NCBI GenBank assembly: GCA_003345555.1
Contig: PRDJ01000010.1
Coordinates: forward strand, 1-32,000
Reading direction: 5' to 3'
Length of the DNA stretch: 32,000 nucleotides
From: Candidatus Thorarchaeota archaeon
Lineage (GTDB): Archaea > Asgardarchaeota > Thorarchaeia > Thorarchaeales > Thorarchaeaceae
Shown here: in pieces, positions 1-4,683 of the stretch
Numbering within the stretch: the first letter of the stretch is position 1
Layout: each line of letters opens with the position of its first letter
The notes under the pieces: generated by a model
The model's database searches: none
Seen by the model: only the letters and a program-made list of their open reading frames with translations
Told to the model about the DNA's origin: nothing
Translations under genes and position numbers: made by a program

Positions 1-279
1 TTTGGCGGGGCTCGTTCTGCAGGGAGAAGTAGGATATCCAGTTTCCGATCAGCAATGAAGGAGAAGGCGAAGTCTGCTCCAGTTTCGGCGCAGGCTGCTT
101 TCAAGAAGGCCGACAAGGCGCTGGCGGGCGAAGAGGAAACAATAGCTCGCCAGGAGGAACAGATGAGACAAGCTCCTGCTGGTGCTCCTTCGGCCGCCGC
201 TGACCAAGCGGTCACTGAGAATCTCAGGCAGATGAAGCGAGCATCAAGAGAGCTGTTTGGGGAGGAAGAAAAGGAGTAA
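1..279 (+). CDS. 3' end of a hypothetical protein (5'-truncated by the window edge); Ala/Glu/Lys/Gln-rich, low-complexity C-terminus
   Basis: Frame 1 is open from base 1 (FGGARSAGRSRISSFRSAMKEK...) to TAA at 277-279. It is co-oriented with the Roadblock cluster. Confidence 0.7.
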   Translation, partial: FGGARSAGRSRISSFRSAMKEKAKSAPVSAQAAFKKADKALAGEEETIARQEEQMRQAPAGAPSAAADQAVTENLRQMKRASRELFGEEEKE

Positions 280-452
280 GTTTCCAAGATGTGCTAGCAT
301 GGAAGGAGGTCATTGTCGATGCACTTGTTTGTGCCAATCCCTTGTCTTCGCCATTCCTTGCGCCGAGAAAGCAGAGCCGTTGCTCGGAAGGAAATTGCGC
401 AATCGAAGACCTTGTTGCCACAAGTCTCAAATACCCAAGCGTGGCGTAGGAG

Positions 453-791
453 ATGGTAAATGCACAATTGACAGTAACGAGGAGTTCGCAGTTGGTAAGT
501 CAAGACAAGCTCCGGTCGATTCTTTCTAAGCTTAAGGCGCAGCAAGGAGTGCGAGGAGTTGTTGTCACCAACATGGAGGGACTCCCTCTGAGTAGTGACC
601 TTGACCCTGACACAACCGAAGCCGTTGCTGCAATCATAACCTCTCTTGTGGGCAAGGCGCTTGATGCAGTGAGAGAGCTACGAGAGGGGTCACTGTCATT
701 CCTGACCCTCGACACATCAAAGGGCCAAATCAACATAGCCCCTGATGTGAAGGAGGGGTTGATACTAGTCGTCCTCAAGAAACAAAGCTGA
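453..791 (+). CDS. Roadblock/LC7 domain protein
   Basis: Typical pattern GVRGVVVTNMEGLPLSSDL...AAIITSLVGKA...LSFLTLDTSKGQINI...LILVVL; SD-like AGGAG upstream of the ATG. Confidence 0.85.
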   Translation: MVNAQLTVTRSSQLVSQDKLRSILSKLKAQQGVRGVVVTNMEGLPLSSDLDPDTTEAVAAIITSLVGKALDAVRELREGSLSFLTLDTSKGQINIAPDVKEGLILVVLKKQS

Positions 792-807
792 ATGGAGACA
801 TATTGCC

Positions 808-1275
808 ATGAGCGATCCGAAGGTGTTCGACAAGATCCTCACAGACATCATACGCCAAGACAAGGGGATAAAGAAAGTCATTCTTGTGGACAAGACAGGG
901 CTCACCATAGCGAATGTGAGTAAGCTAAGCTATTTTCCAGTTGATACCGACAGCATAGGTGCCATTGCCAGTGCTGTGTTCTGCGCAAGCGAGGAGCAGG
1001 GCAAGAACCTCCAAATCGGAGAGCTTGAAATTGTGACCTCTGAGTTCTCAGAAGGCAAGATTTTCGCTTCGTCGTGCGGGAAAGGAGTACTATGCGTTGT
1101 ATCTGAAGCAGAGGTCAACATCGGACTGATACGACTGATTATGAAGAAACAGGGCGTGCAGCTTTCTGACGAATTGGACAAGTTCTTAGCAGTTGAACCG
1201 ATGGCACCAACAAAGAGCAAAGAGCTAGATGAGGAGGACCTGAAGTCCGCTCTTGCAGAACTTGAGAAAGTGTAG
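808..1275 (+). CDS. Roadblock/LC7 (MglB-like) protein with a C-terminal acidic amphipathic extension
   Basis: GIKKVILVDKTGLTIA...GAIASAVF...GELEIVTSEFSEGKIF...VNIGLIRLIMKK, followed by a linker and ELDEEDLKSALAELEKV. Confidence 0.85.
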   Translation: MSDPKVFDKILTDIIRQDKGIKKVILVDKTGLTIANVSKLSYFPVDTDSIGAIASAVFCASEEQGKNLQIGELEIVTSEFSEGKIFASSCGKGVLCVVSEAEVNIGLIRLIMKKQGVQLSDELDKFLAVEPMAPTKSKELDEEDLKSALAELEKV

Positions 1276-1331
1276 GCTCCATCATCATCACACTCTGCCT
1301 AGGCGAGCAAGTCTCTCCCTACATAACGGAC

Positions 1332-1343
1332 AAAGGCTTTTAT
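1332..1343 (+). promoter_or_regulatory. Putative BRE/TATA promoter for the mglA-roadblock unit
   Basis: AAAGGC-TTTTAT in the 245-nt gap upstream of the GTPase. Confidence 0.45.
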
Positions 1344-1520
1344 GAGAGTACAATGTTAAGTCAGCCCGCACCCCGACATGGGGCGCCAAGCTCGGGGATT
1401 GACGCTCCTTTCTAAGAGCGCAGGCAGTACCCGATGGAGAATCATTCTGCCATTGACCGAATAGCAGTGCTGCCATCTCCGAACCCCAAAGGGTCCACGA
1501 CAACGACATAGCAGCGAGGT

Positions 1521-2090
1521 GTGAAAGTGCGCAAGGACGACAAAGGCCGGATTCATCTCAAGCTTGTATTCTATGGTCCGAGCCTAGGTGGCAAGACAAC
1601 GGCGCTTCGCTGGCTCTATGGGAAAGTTGAAGGGCTCCAGAAGGGAGAGTTCACAGCAATCGAAGACGAGACCAATCGTACTCTGTTTTTTGACTATGTT
1701 CCGATGAGTGCAGGAGGCCGTGTTCTTTTCGATGTATTCACTGTTGCAGGACAGAAACGACACAGACATCAGAGGAAGGTCGTACTCCAAGGCGCCGACG
1801 GGATTCTATTCGTCGCAGACTCGTCGCCTGATCAAAGAGAAGAGAATGTAGAGAGCTTCGAGGAGCTCAAGCTGTTCCTGGGAGACGCACTTGGCCGCGA
1901 GATCCCTATTGTTGTTATGTTGAACAAGCGGGACCTGCCTAACCGGATGTCACGCGATGAAATGCTCGACCTTCTTGGACTCGGCGGAAACGTGCCAATC
2001 TATGAGACGATTGCCGTTCAAGGCGTGGGCGTCAAAAGAGCTTTCCAGGCCATAGCAAGAGAAGTCATACTTAAGAGAATGTACAAGTAA
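1521..2090 (+). CDS. MglA-family small Ras-like GTPase
   Basis: KLVFYGPSLGGKTT (G1), RTLFFDY (MglA switch I with Arg-Thr), TVAGQ (G3; MglA has TVPGQ), GADGILFVADS, NKRDL (G4), ETIA..GVGV (G5). GTG start after GAGGT. Confidence 0.9.
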   Translation: MKVRKDDKGRIHLKLVFYGPSLGGKTTALRWLYGKVEGLQKGEFTAIEDETNRTLFFDYVPMSAGGRVLFDVFTVAGQKRHRHQRKVVLQGADGILFVADSSPDQREENVESFEELKLFLGDALGREIPIVVMLNKRDLPNRMSRDEMLDLLGLGGNVPIYETIAVQGVGVKRAFQAIAREVILKRMYK

Positions 2091-2100
2091 TCGCACTTAG

Positions 2101-2481
2101 GTGAGTCTGATGAGCGAGTCGCGGGGCGATACACTCGAGGGAGTCCTGAACGAATTACAGGGTAGTATTCCCGAAATAGAGGCTTGTGCAATAGTCAGTG
2201 TTGAAGGGCTCCCCATTGTCTCAGCCCTGCCGACTGATGTTGACGAAGCCAAGCTTGCTGCAATCACGGCAGCAATGCTCACACTGGGCGAAAAGGCAGC
2301 AGTTGAGCTCGGAAAGGGAAACCTCGAACAGGTCAATGTTAAGGGCGCCAACGGCTGGGTGTTGGTAATCCAAGCAGGAATGAATGCATGCCTTACTGTG
2401 TCTACTACGGCCAATGCAAAGCTCGGCCTTGTCTTTCTAGACATGAAACGCGCAGCTGAGAAGGTTGCGCAGCTGATTTAG
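2101..2481 (+). CDS. Roadblock/LC7 domain protein (MglB-like); start may be ATG 2110
   Basis: PEIEACAIVSVEGLPIVSALP...AAITAAMLTLGEKAAVELGKGNLEQVNVKG...AKLGLVFLDMKRAAEKV is the classic archaeal Roadblock signature. Confidence 0.9.
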   Translation: MSLMSESRGDTLEGVLNELQGSIPEIEACAIVSVEGLPIVSALPTDVDEAKLAAITAAMLTLGEKAAVELGKGNLEQVNVKGANGWVLVIQAGMNACLTVSTTANAKLGLVFLDMKRAAEKVAQLI

Positions 2482-2552
2482 CGGCCATGTTTCTACTAAC
2501 ACTAAATCTATGAGCCGCTTTTTCCGCTACTATAGTAAGGTCGTGCATCTAA

Positions 2553-3320
2553 TTGAATCTGGCCGGACCAGTGTATAGGCTCTATGAATATTGGCTGTCT
2601 CGCCAGCTCAGCAAGGAGAAGGCGCCTCGACATGTGGGCATAATCCTTGATGGTAATCGACGATATGCAAAGGAACATGGCTTCGATGTGCCATGGATAG
2701 GACACCGCAAGGGTGCTCAGAAAGTCATGGAAGTCCTGCGCATTCTTTGGGAGGCCGGCGTAAAGGTATGTACGATCTACGCTTTCTCGCTTGAGAACTT
2801 CCAGAGAAGCAGAGAGGAAGTTCGTGAGATAATGGCCATCGCACGACAGAAGTTCGCCGATGTTGTAGGTAACCCGGATGTTAAGCGACACAAAGTCAGG
2901 ATTAAGGCGATTGGTAGGGTGGATCTTCTTCCTCCGGAAGTAAGGGATGCTATCCATAAGGCCGAGGCAGAGACCGAGATGTATAGCGACCATATCCTCA
3001 ATGTCGCAATAGGTTACTCAGGAAGAAGCGAGCTTGTCGATGCAGTCAGAGCAATTGGAGAAGAAATCAAATCAGGTAAGACTTCTCCCGCTGATATTGA
3101 TGAGCGCGTCATTGAAAGCCATCTCTATACAAACGGTGTCCCAGACCCTGACCTAATCATCCGGACATCTGGTGAAGAGCGGCTCTCTGGATTCCTTTTA
3201 TGGCAATCCGCGTATTCCGAGCTCTATTTTGTGCAAATATACTGGCCTGCCATAAGACGGATTGATATCTGGCGCGCCCTGCGCTCATATGAAACTCGTT
3301 CGCGCCGGTTTGGCAAGTGA
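2553..3320 (+). CDS. uppS: cis-prenyltransferase (undecaprenyl/polyprenyl diphosphate synthase)
   Basis: PRHVGIILDGNRR, YAFSLENFQRS, DPDLIIRTSGEERLSGFLLWQSAYSELYF. Confidence 0.95.
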   Translation: MNLAGPVYRLYEYWLSRQLSKEKAPRHVGIILDGNRRYAKEHGFDVPWIGHRKGAQKVMEVLRILWEAGVKVCTIYAFSLENFQRSREEVREIMAIARQKFADVVGNPDVKRHKVRIKAIGRVDLLPPEVRDAIHKAEAETEMYSDHILNVAIGYSGRSELVDAVRAIGEEIKSGKTSPADIDERVIESHLYTNGVPDPDLIIRTSGEERLSGFLLWQSAYSELYFVQIYWPAIRRIDIWRALRSYETRSRRFGK

Positions 3321-3468
3321 GAGACCAGTAGGAATATTGTTCGCAATCTCGGGCGGCTCTAGTGACACAGTCTTTTATATGCCTCATCTCTTTCGACAAC
3401 GGACGTACATAATCTGGCAGATTCCAATCACTGTGCAAGATTATGAGTCCGACTGACGTGAAGAAGGC

Positions 3469-4683
3469 ATGGATTTGGTCCGGCAACCTATTGAGGTATA
3501 CCGCGGATTGGTTGAAGTCCGCCTTGCAGACGGAATCATCGGACACATCTCTCCACTGGTCAGTCGGTTTTCAAATGACATATTTGCGGGTCAGAAGACT
3601 GCCGATCACTTGACGAGATTCCTAGCATTGTTCTCGCGCTTCACTGCTTTCTTGAGTTCCAGCGCTACGGCCAATTTGGACAATCTCGAAATGGCTGTAG
3701 ACTTACTCGATTACTTCACTTCCACATCGAAGTGGTGGGTAATCTCGAGAAAGAAACCTTGTATAATTCCAAGGCCACCATCGCGAGACCCTCGAGATTT
3801 CTTGAAATCGATTGCCGACATTCAGCTTGGCAGCGATGCTTCAGGTCGGATTACCACGTCGACTGAGAAGCTGTCACAATTCCTGTCTGAGCACGGGATT
3901 GCGGATGGTCGAACGCGACAAGCACTCTGTGAGAGCTTTGGATCAATCTGGACCCTGCTAAGCGGCTTTGTCTGTAGAAGTCAAGGTCGGGGCGCCATCT
4001 CAGAAGCCGACTTCGAAGCTGGCTATGACACATTCAGGGTTATGTTGTTCTATGTTCCCATCGAAGACTTCATGGCCCTCACAGCCATTAGGAGGGTTGG
4101 AACCAACGATAAGCTCCCACGGATTGCACGAATAGCCGTGGCTGCAGGGTTCGAGCGTAAGCTTGATTCTTCGGTCGCAGCACGTCTTGAGAGACTGCAC
4201 GGAGAGAATCTCGCAAAGGTCGCGGTCCTGACCTCGGGCGCTTCTCGTGCTGTACTCACGAACTCGCTTCGGTTCATCGCCCAACTTGCTACTGCTGAGA
4301 AAGGAGTGCCCAGCATTGAGGACACCGAGTACGAAACCATGATAGAGCAGGCCATCGAGATACTTCAGAAAGCAGGCGTAGACTCTTCCCTCTTTCAAGA
4401 CGAGAACGCAGTTGCCAAGCTGTTCAAGAGTCTGCGCATTTCTGATGAGATGGCTGAACGGATTAGTCTCGTAACTAGGCGTCTTGAAGGGCTCATAATT
4501 GACACTGCAGGGAGTCATGATTTTCTTCTTCAGTACTCAAGGCTGGTTCCCCGCCTAGTGTCGCTCCTACTGCTGCTTGCCAGCGGAACGAGACCTCCGT
4601 CCGACACTCCTCTGCAAGATGTAGATATGAAGAAGGGTCTGATGTCTCTAAATCAGCTGCTCAGTGAGCGGAGCTCTCCTTAG
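3469..4683 (+). CDS. Hypothetical all-helical protein, 404 aa, with apparent internal repeats
   Basis: Long ORF with protein-like composition and TTTTATAT at 3373-3380 upstream. No recognisable catalytic motif. Confidence 0.75.
   Translation: MDLVRQPIEVYRGLVEVRLADGIIGHISPLVSRFSNDIFAGQKTADHLTRFLALFSRFTAFLSSSATANLDNLEMAVDLLDYFTSTSKWWVISRKKPCIIPRPPSRDPRDFLKSIADIQLGSDASGRITTSTEKLSQFLSEHGIADGRTRQALCESFGSIWTLLSGFVCRSQGRGAISEADFEAGYDTFRVMLFYVPIEDFMALTAIRRVGTNDKLPRIARIAVAAGFERKLDSSVAARLERLHGENLAKVAVLTSGASRAVLTNSLRFIAQLATAEKGVPSIEDTEYETMIEQAIEILQKAGVDSSLFQDENAVAKLFKSLRISDEMAERISLVTRRLEGLIIDTAGSHDFLLQYSRLVPRLVSLLLLLASGTRPPSDTPLQDVDMKKGLMSLNQLLSERSSP

Follow-up and report, generated by a model that had tools for sequence, protein, structure and literature searches.

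The gene cluster at the start of a Candidatus Thorarchaeota contig is probably the local copy of an old, Asgard-wide switch of the MglA/MglB type, accompanied by accessory Roadblock proteins that would serve as a platform. The cluster occupies positions 1-2481 of the window, by which we mean the whole 32,000-nucleotide stretch that was analysed, and the window is itself the start of contig C10 (PRDJ01000010.1) in an assembly of 2.28 Mb and 82 contigs. According to the list of open reading frames (ORFs), the tail of a gene (92 codons) is followed by two Roadblock genes (Rb1 and Rb2), a gene for an MglA-type GTPase and a third Roadblock gene (Rb3), all on the + strand. Three matches to the Pfam family Robl_LC7 cover positions 453-791 (E = 2.2e-16), 808-1275 (6e-11) and 2101-2481 (2.5e-17). 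The first-pass annotation of this DNA, made from the letters alone, had described the same gene order, with three Roadblocks and an MglA on a shared strand, and the ORFs, the Pfam matches and the structure matches of MglA all confirm it. The set is nevertheless incomplete in the window assembly, as relatives have a fourth Roadblock (Rb4) upstream, which is divergently transcribed.

In the explanation that we favour, MglA would be a Ras-like GTPase with its own catalytic arginine and glutamine, and Rb2, encoded just upstream of it as in bacterial mglB-mglA operons, would be its MglB-type regulator. By analogy, a dimer of Rb2 would act as a GTPase-activating protein (GAP) that binds to MglA-GTP and brings the catalytic residues into place, and the acidic C-terminal helix of Rb2 would make a second, allosteric contact. 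Rb1 (short, of the LC7 type, its helix-binding face being open) would be a non-redundant paralogue alongside Rb3 and Rb4, and the dimers of these proteins most likely stack on Rb2 or compete with it, giving a platform by which the switch is positioned or tuned, in the manner of MglC for MglB in Myxococcus. The protein contacts, any GAP or guanine nucleotide exchange factor (GEF) activity, and the cellular output, which might be polarity or the selection of membrane or cytoskeleton sites, are all predictions.

For comparison, MglA loci were taken from all 24 remaining genomes of the family, so that 25 Thorarchaeota-family genomes were surveyed, as well as from named records and from members of 13 additional families in the phylum, and the ORFs of each locus were classified by profiles built from orthologues.

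The MglA-family GTPase

The GTPase gene was listed at positions 1521-2090 (+), and the starts conserved in relatives indicate that translation probably begins at GTG 1527, yielding 187 amino acids (aa). Residues 10-184 match Myxococcus MglA structures (E = 6.6e-39). When the protein is compared with solved structures, MglA of Myxococcus xanthus and of Thermus thermophilus score about 1e-38 to 1e-39, and Arf comes next at 1.5e-11. The P-loop GPSLGGKT and the G4 motif NKRD are invariant among orthologues. G3 reads TVAGQ, with Thr in place of Asp, and its T74 and Q78 are near-invariant. The intrinsic arginine, R53 in NRTLFFD, is invariant and aligns with the Arg of TDRTLFFD in M. xanthus. Both of the motifs singled out earlier as specific for MglA, RTLFFD (R53) and TVAGQ (Q78), are therefore present and conserved among orthologues. 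Residues 10-64, spanning the G1-G2 stretch, align to M. xanthus MglA free of gaps, and an extra stretch between G1 and G2 is typical of bacterial MglA (PMC4316618). By its sequence, the GTPase is a member of the MglA family with the hallmarks of the bacterial Group 1 type (M. xanthus and T. thermophilus; PMC4316618), namely TxxGQ, the intrinsic arginine, the gap-free G1-G2 stretch and NKxD.

At 187-189 aa, the protein consists of a G domain alone and has neither a C-terminal Roadblock domain nor any other extra domain, nor a lipid-anchor motif. Among the 24 family genomes, which represent 16 genera, MglA is 90-98% identical and is the best-conserved protein of the neighbourhood (72-95% for UppS and an acetyl-CoA synthetase subunit); loci with 97-98% identical MglA were also found in Candidatus Thorarchaeota records. 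The closest relatives outside the Asgards are bacterial MglAs, at 40-44% identity. In a quick tree built without bootstraps, the 58 sequences from bacteria group in a single clade (support 99) and every Asgard sequence falls outside it, which argues against a recent transfer of MglA from bacteria. The tree gives no link to Rag GTPases.

Three MglA paralogues are present in the window genome, and almost all family members keep all three. The two further ones lie on contigs C34 (L001:10191-11045) and C50 (L002:6418-7032) and are 51% and 38% identical to the copy in the cluster. The paralogue on C34 carries an N-terminal extension of about 95 residues, and a 336-aa Roadblock-containing protein is encoded 0.9 kb upstream of the one on C50.

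Rb2 as the probable counterpart of MglB

Rb2 (808-1275, +) has a full Roadblock domain, probably of the MglB type, a variable linker and a conserved acidic C-terminal helix, an assignment based on PDB matches, profiles, a tree and an AlphaFold2 (AF2) model. Its top PDB sequence match is M. xanthus MglB (1.3e-5, residues 11-147). In most of the 68 bacterial loci that were fetched, the gene directly upstream of mglA encodes a Roadblock that has an acidic C-terminal helix, the arrangement seen for Rb2, and most bacterial MglBs encoded at this position score best on the Rb2 profile. Scores in hhalign against bacterial MglB were 70 for Rb2, 58 for Rb3, 41 for Rb1 and 40 for Rb4. Rb2 and bacterial MglB also form a clade with an SH-aLRT (Shimodaira-Hasegawa-like approximate likelihood ratio test) support of 83, a join flagged as long-branch.

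An AF2 model made with 12 close orthologues only was discarded at a predicted local distance difference test (pLDDT) score of 49, and the addition of bacterial MglBs raised the confidence. With the resulting 52-sequence alignment, the pLDDT was 87 and the full Roadblock fold (alpha-beta-beta-alpha-beta-beta-beta-alpha) was obtained, followed by a disordered linker (132-141, pLDDT below 50) and a helix (142-153). The tail helix is kept across families with L145, A148, L152 and E153 invariant, and it shares alignment columns with the acidic tail of bacterial MglB. The remark in the first-pass annotation that one of the Roadblocks carries a tail can thus be extended, in that this tail is MglB-like in its conservation, its alignment and its modelled helix. 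In a Foldseek search with the model, MglB structures were found at about 1e-9, and LAMTOR2, an MK-D1 Roadblock and MglB ranked alike. Taking together the position upstream of mglA, the sequence matches, the clade and the acidic tail helix, we regard Rb2, with moderate confidence, as the best counterpart of MglB. At one locus from another genome (L013:5686-6356, G035), Rb2 is split into two ORFs of 99 and 106 aa, possibly by a frameshift or an assembly error.

Rb1, Rb3 and Rb4

The longest ORF of Rb1 runs from 453, and alignment with relatives places the conserved start at TTG 492, resulting in a 99-aa protein (492-791, +). Pfam, PDB matches and the alignment identify it as a short Roadblock of the RBLC7 or dynein LC7 type, which ends just past the last strand and has no C-terminal helix. 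It matches PDB entry 7F8F at 4e-24 and the eukaryotic dynein light chain roadblock at 5e-14, being the most similar to the latter of the four Roadblock types. The Rb1 of Odin is letter-for-letter identical to 7F8F ("Odin-RBLC7"), the sole cluster member with an experimental study. In the crystal it is a homodimer whose site for a partner helix is open (PMC10933270).

Rb3 (2101-2481, +; start GTG 2101 or ATG 2110) is a standard, full-length Roadblock that begins 10-19 nucleotides (nt) past the MglA stop. Its PDB matches are 7F8M (1.3e-24), the MK-D1 Roadblock 9JUE (1.7e-17) and CvnB5 (5e-7). Thor-RB (7F8M) was considered as an orthologue of Rb3 and rejected, being orthologous to a paralogue on contig C34. 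Rb4 is known from relatives (for example L004:4740-5108), where it has a weak Pfam Roadblock match. It was not found when the whole window assembly was searched, and its absence is presumably due to the gap at the contig start.

By hhalign, Rb1 to Rb4 are as distant from one another as they are from bacterial MglB. In the Roadblock tree, the separate clades of Rb1, Rb2 and Rb4 are well supported and that of Rb3 is weakly held (support 13). Orthologues of the Roadblock types occur in Thor and Odin as well as in Heimdall-type and further Asgard lineages. The three Roadblocks, already described as divergent in the first reading, turn out to be old paralogues, each with one-to-one orthologues across Asgard families.

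The same annotation had gone further, suggesting that Roadblock heterodimers could share GAP, GEF and scaffold roles in an intermediate between MglA/MglB and Ragulator/Rag (LAMTOR1-5, RagA/C); the rival explanation built on it would have the Roadblocks pair as obligate heterodimers. Some points speak for it. Several Roadblock-fold subunits lie beside a small GTPase, short (RBLC7) and long (RB) designs are found side by side as in Ragulator (PMC10933270), Rb1 exceeds the Pfam cut-off for LAMTOR5 (30.4 bits versus 27), Rb2 passes that for MAPKK1_Int (LAMTOR3), the matches being weak, and the Rb2 model matches LAMTOR2 equally to MglB. Four Roadblock genes are also kept together without mglA in Odin, as described below. 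However, the proposal fails on two defining points, as a Roadblock domain is missing from the GTPase and a LAMTOR1-like gene from the cluster. It is by a C-terminal Roadblock domain of their own that Rag GTPases are docked on Ragulator. The GTPase of the cluster is a bare G domain of the MglA type, and its closest outside relatives are bacterial MglAs, with hallmarks common to both. A LAMTOR1-like wrap protein was not seen among the cluster ORFs of the window or of related loci, a very divergent one being possible. In addition, Ragulator pairs like with like (RB with RB, RBLC7 with RBLC7) and the cluster has a single RBLC7 gene, the orthologue of which is a homodimer in crystals (PMC10933270); separate Rag-like GTPases have been reported in Asgards (PMC10933270). 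We consider such an intermediate improbable, and a division of GAP, GEF and scaffold roles among the Roadblocks would in any case be speculative. Of the first interpretation, the old and distinct Roadblocks, the conserved gene order and the MglB-like tail of one Roadblock are upheld, and the intermediate is not supported. The cluster is not evidence for an ancestor of Ragulator or, as discussed with the flanking genes, of COPII.

Conservation of the cluster among Asgard archaea

The survey of synteny shows that the gene order is conserved in relatives, both within the Thorarchaeota family and in six other families. Rb1-Rb2 lies upstream of MglA in 23/23 informative family genomes, Rb3 directly downstream of it in 23/24, and the divergent Rb4 is present in 20/21. 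The order Rb1-Rb2-MglA-Rb3 was also found in six other Asgard families and in the records LC30 and DZ2M.271, mostly with a divergent Rb4. In Heimdall-type genomes, just Rb1 and MglA are adjacent, and Rb2- and Rb3-like genes are located elsewhere. Judged from these comparisons of sequence and order, the gene set is old and common to many Asgard lineages.

A different arrangement was found in Odin LCB_4 (L125:6938-8707, G026), in which the order is Rb4|Rb1-Rb2-Rb3, with Rb4 divergent, no GTPase gene in between and the nearest mglA 140 kb away from the Roadblock cluster. Clustering of the Odin Roadblocks without mglA fits the notion that the four act as a set, and it is the best hint in this direction.

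Such adjacency might also be no more than inherited. One Roadblock (Rb2 or Rb3) would then serve MglA, and the others would be independent homodimeric adaptors that serve different clients. Several observations are in line with this possibility: the module is dispersed in several Asgard lineages, unrelated neighbours are syntenic too, at least seven additional Roadblock proteins are encoded elsewhere in the window genome, and within the family the cluster appears to consist of separate, promoter-led units, with inserted genes tolerated between Rb2 and MglA (see below). On the other hand, from Thor to Odin the four paralogues remain neighbours, at 40-65% identity and with different genes around them, and the gaps inside the Rb1-Rb2 pair and inside the MglA-Rb3 pair are just 10-20 nt in the window. 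We regard a merely inherited neighbourhood as rather unlikely.

The preferred explanation, an MglA/MglB-type switch with accessory Roadblocks, has points against it as well. The Heimdall-type loci retain Rb1 alone beside MglA, and Rb1 instead of Rb2 could accordingly be the primary partner of MglA. The likeness between Rb2 and MglB is limited, as their matches reach only E values of 1e-5 to 1e-6, the support of 83 is on a long-branch join and Foldseek does not tell MglB and LAMTOR2 apart. A Thorarchaeota MglA-MglB pair has been modelled with AlphaFold3 (PMC13408092), a precedent for the explanation, but that paper reports that binding of the C-terminal helix to the G protein was not predicted for its Thorarchaeota pair. 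Finally, the synteny of the downstream genes for UppS and acetyl-CoA synthetase is likewise conserved, and part of the conservation of order may reflect frozen synteny instead of function.

Promoter-like elements and putative transcription units

Two conserved boxes resembling archaeal promoter elements (B recognition element (BRE)/TATA-like) were seen in the cluster. The first, CCACAAGTCT(A/C)AAATA (418-433, +), is near-invariant in 11/11 family loci and precedes the conserved TTG/GTG start of Rb1 by about 60 nt; it is the putative promoter of Rb1-Rb2. The second, ACAAAGGCTTTTATGAGA (1330-1347, +), is the putative internal promoter of MglA-Rb3. Its core is present in 8/8 family spacers and is the sole conserved part of the spacer between Rb2 and MglA, which is 245 nt long in the window and 233-306 nt in the family. 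These boxes would split the cluster into an Rb1-Rb2 unit and an MglA-Rb3 unit in this family. In the loci of other families that were sampled first (L009-L014), the spacer measures 16-186 nt.

Upstream of the first box, the palindrome ATTGCGCAAT (394-403) is a candidate regulator-binding site. Its TGCGCA core (396-401) is invariant in 11/11 aligned family loci and precedes the start of Rb1 by 96-117 nt, a conserved position. The box follows the palindrome 15 nt later, and the spacing to Rb1 is kept in 11/11 family loci. Palindrome and box together possibly constitute an operator plus promoter. The 8-mer WTGCGCAW is not enriched above chance in the window, and the weight of this assignment rests on the conserved position; a copy of the 8-mer was not found before MglA in the window.

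The spacer between Rb2 and MglA is a hotspot of insertion. In one family locus (L025), a TetR regulator and a methyltransferase are inserted there. In a genome of the same genus (G003, L005:6201-7190), a gene for a two-domain arrestin fold (Arrestin_N 2.5e-20, Arrestin_C 3.6e-11) sits there on the opposite strand. Regarding the spacer itself, an Rfam scan of positions 1-3500 returned just a sub-threshold chance match, with no known RNA in the spacer, and none of the small ORFs in it proved to be conserved. With internal boxes and inserted genes, the module is not one tight operon in the family.

Relation to known systems

Additional Roadblocks beside an MglA have precedent in bacteria. In Myxococcus, MglC is an accessory Roadblock that joins MglB. 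Systems with MglA and MglB in a 1:2 ratio are known too (PMC4316618). The Asgard cluster differs from the bacterial MglA/MglB systems in that a single cluster has three to four different Roadblocks, including one short Roadblock of the LC7 type, and in its MglAs, which are placed outside the sampled bacterial clade. Genes for RomR/RomX, Frz or motility were not seen in the first 7 kb of the window. Actinobacterial conservons (CvnA-D; MglA Group 2) likewise combine an MglA-family GTPase with a Roadblock, and Rb3 matches CvnB5. However, G4 of the Asgard GTPase is the canonical NKRD, unlike that of Group 2 (PMC4316618), and neither the sensor kinase CvnA nor CvnC (DUF742) was seen in the first 7 kb of the window or among the cluster ORFs of related loci.

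MglA-like GTPases and the structures of Roadblock and RBLC7 proteins are known in Asgards from the work of Tran et al. 2024 (PMC10933270; 7F8F, 7F8M and MKD1-RB). The proteins were studied there singly, as homodimers; as described above, Odin-RBLC7 is the orthologue of Rb1, and Thor-RB is that of a paralogue elsewhere in the window genome. A description of the conserved four-Roadblock cluster was not found in the literature searched. Small GTPases and Roadblock/longin proteins are numerous in Asgard archaea, and Asgard GTPases are reported to be hard to match to their regulators by genome layout (PMC10933270). The cluster offers one matched set, in which a GTPase is combined with an MglB-like regulator and as many as three additional Roadblocks. 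It thereby supplies partners that can be tested for a single archaeal G protein, with a crystal structure already available for one member, and the set could be reconstituted in order to learn how multi-Roadblock GTPase platforms worked before eukaryotes. A coupling of Roadblock genes with MglA-like GTPases was proposed by Koonin and Aravind 2000, as far as that work is cited in PMC10933270, and in agreement with the proposal as cited, the Asgard protein most closely related to the dynein LC7 light chain is encoded in the cluster next to a GTPase.

A bolder version of the platform would have all four Roadblocks in one hetero-oligomeric assembly that controls MglA, for instance an Rb1 dimer held by the Rb2 helix plus an Rb3/Rb4 pair. 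The idea behind this example is that the conserved tail helix of Rb2 might occupy the helix site that is open in the dimer of the LC7-type Rb1. We view this assembly as doubtful. If it is true, a multi-Roadblock GTPase scaffold exists in prokaryotes that follows the same principle as Ragulator and the LC7 site of dynein, and the Roadblock platform persists also after departure of the GTPase gene from the cluster, as in Odin.

Flanking genes

Positions 1-279 (+), previously taken for an unknown ORF, encode the Lys/Glu/Ala-rich C-terminal tail (92 codons) of a Sec23/24-like protein of about 540 aa, the remainder of which is lost at the contig start. The product shares 83% identity with the last part of a 542-aa ORF from the same-genus genome mentioned above (L005) and 38% with residues 449-544 of L004:5287-6921. 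Full-length relatives contain the Pfam domains Sec23_trunk (von Willebrand factor A type), Sec23_BS (beta-sandwich) and zf-Sec23_Sec24. The missing N-terminal part was sought in the whole window assembly and not found.

As this gene lies between Rb4 and Rb1, directly upstream of the cluster and co-directional with it, in 20/23 informative family genomes, its product could conceivably act with MglA as Sec23/24 does with Sar1, the Roadblocks being regulators. However, the cluster lacks this gene in all the other families sampled and in three genomes of the Thorarchaeota family, and the gene is accordingly a late insertion between Rb4 and Rb1. The conserved promoter-like box at 418-433 separates it from Rb1. 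In Sec23, the arginine finger is carried by the helical and gelsolin domains, and the 540-aa protein has no Pfam match to either. A coat-like partnership of this kind seems highly improbable.

Downstream of Rb3 is the gene for a cis-prenyltransferase of the UppS family (2553-3320, +; Pfam Prenyltransf 2.7e-76; TIGR00055). It follows the cluster on the MglA strand in nearly all loci with the full cluster, including those of five other families, and it may be co-transcribed with the cluster or represent frozen synteny. UppS keeps the strand of MglA even where Rb3 is inverted (L010, L123). The next gene (3469-4683) encodes a 404-aa protein without a Pfam, NCBIfam or Atlas lead and without a BLAST match in other families. 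It is found after UppS throughout the family and evolves fast, with identities of 39-84%.

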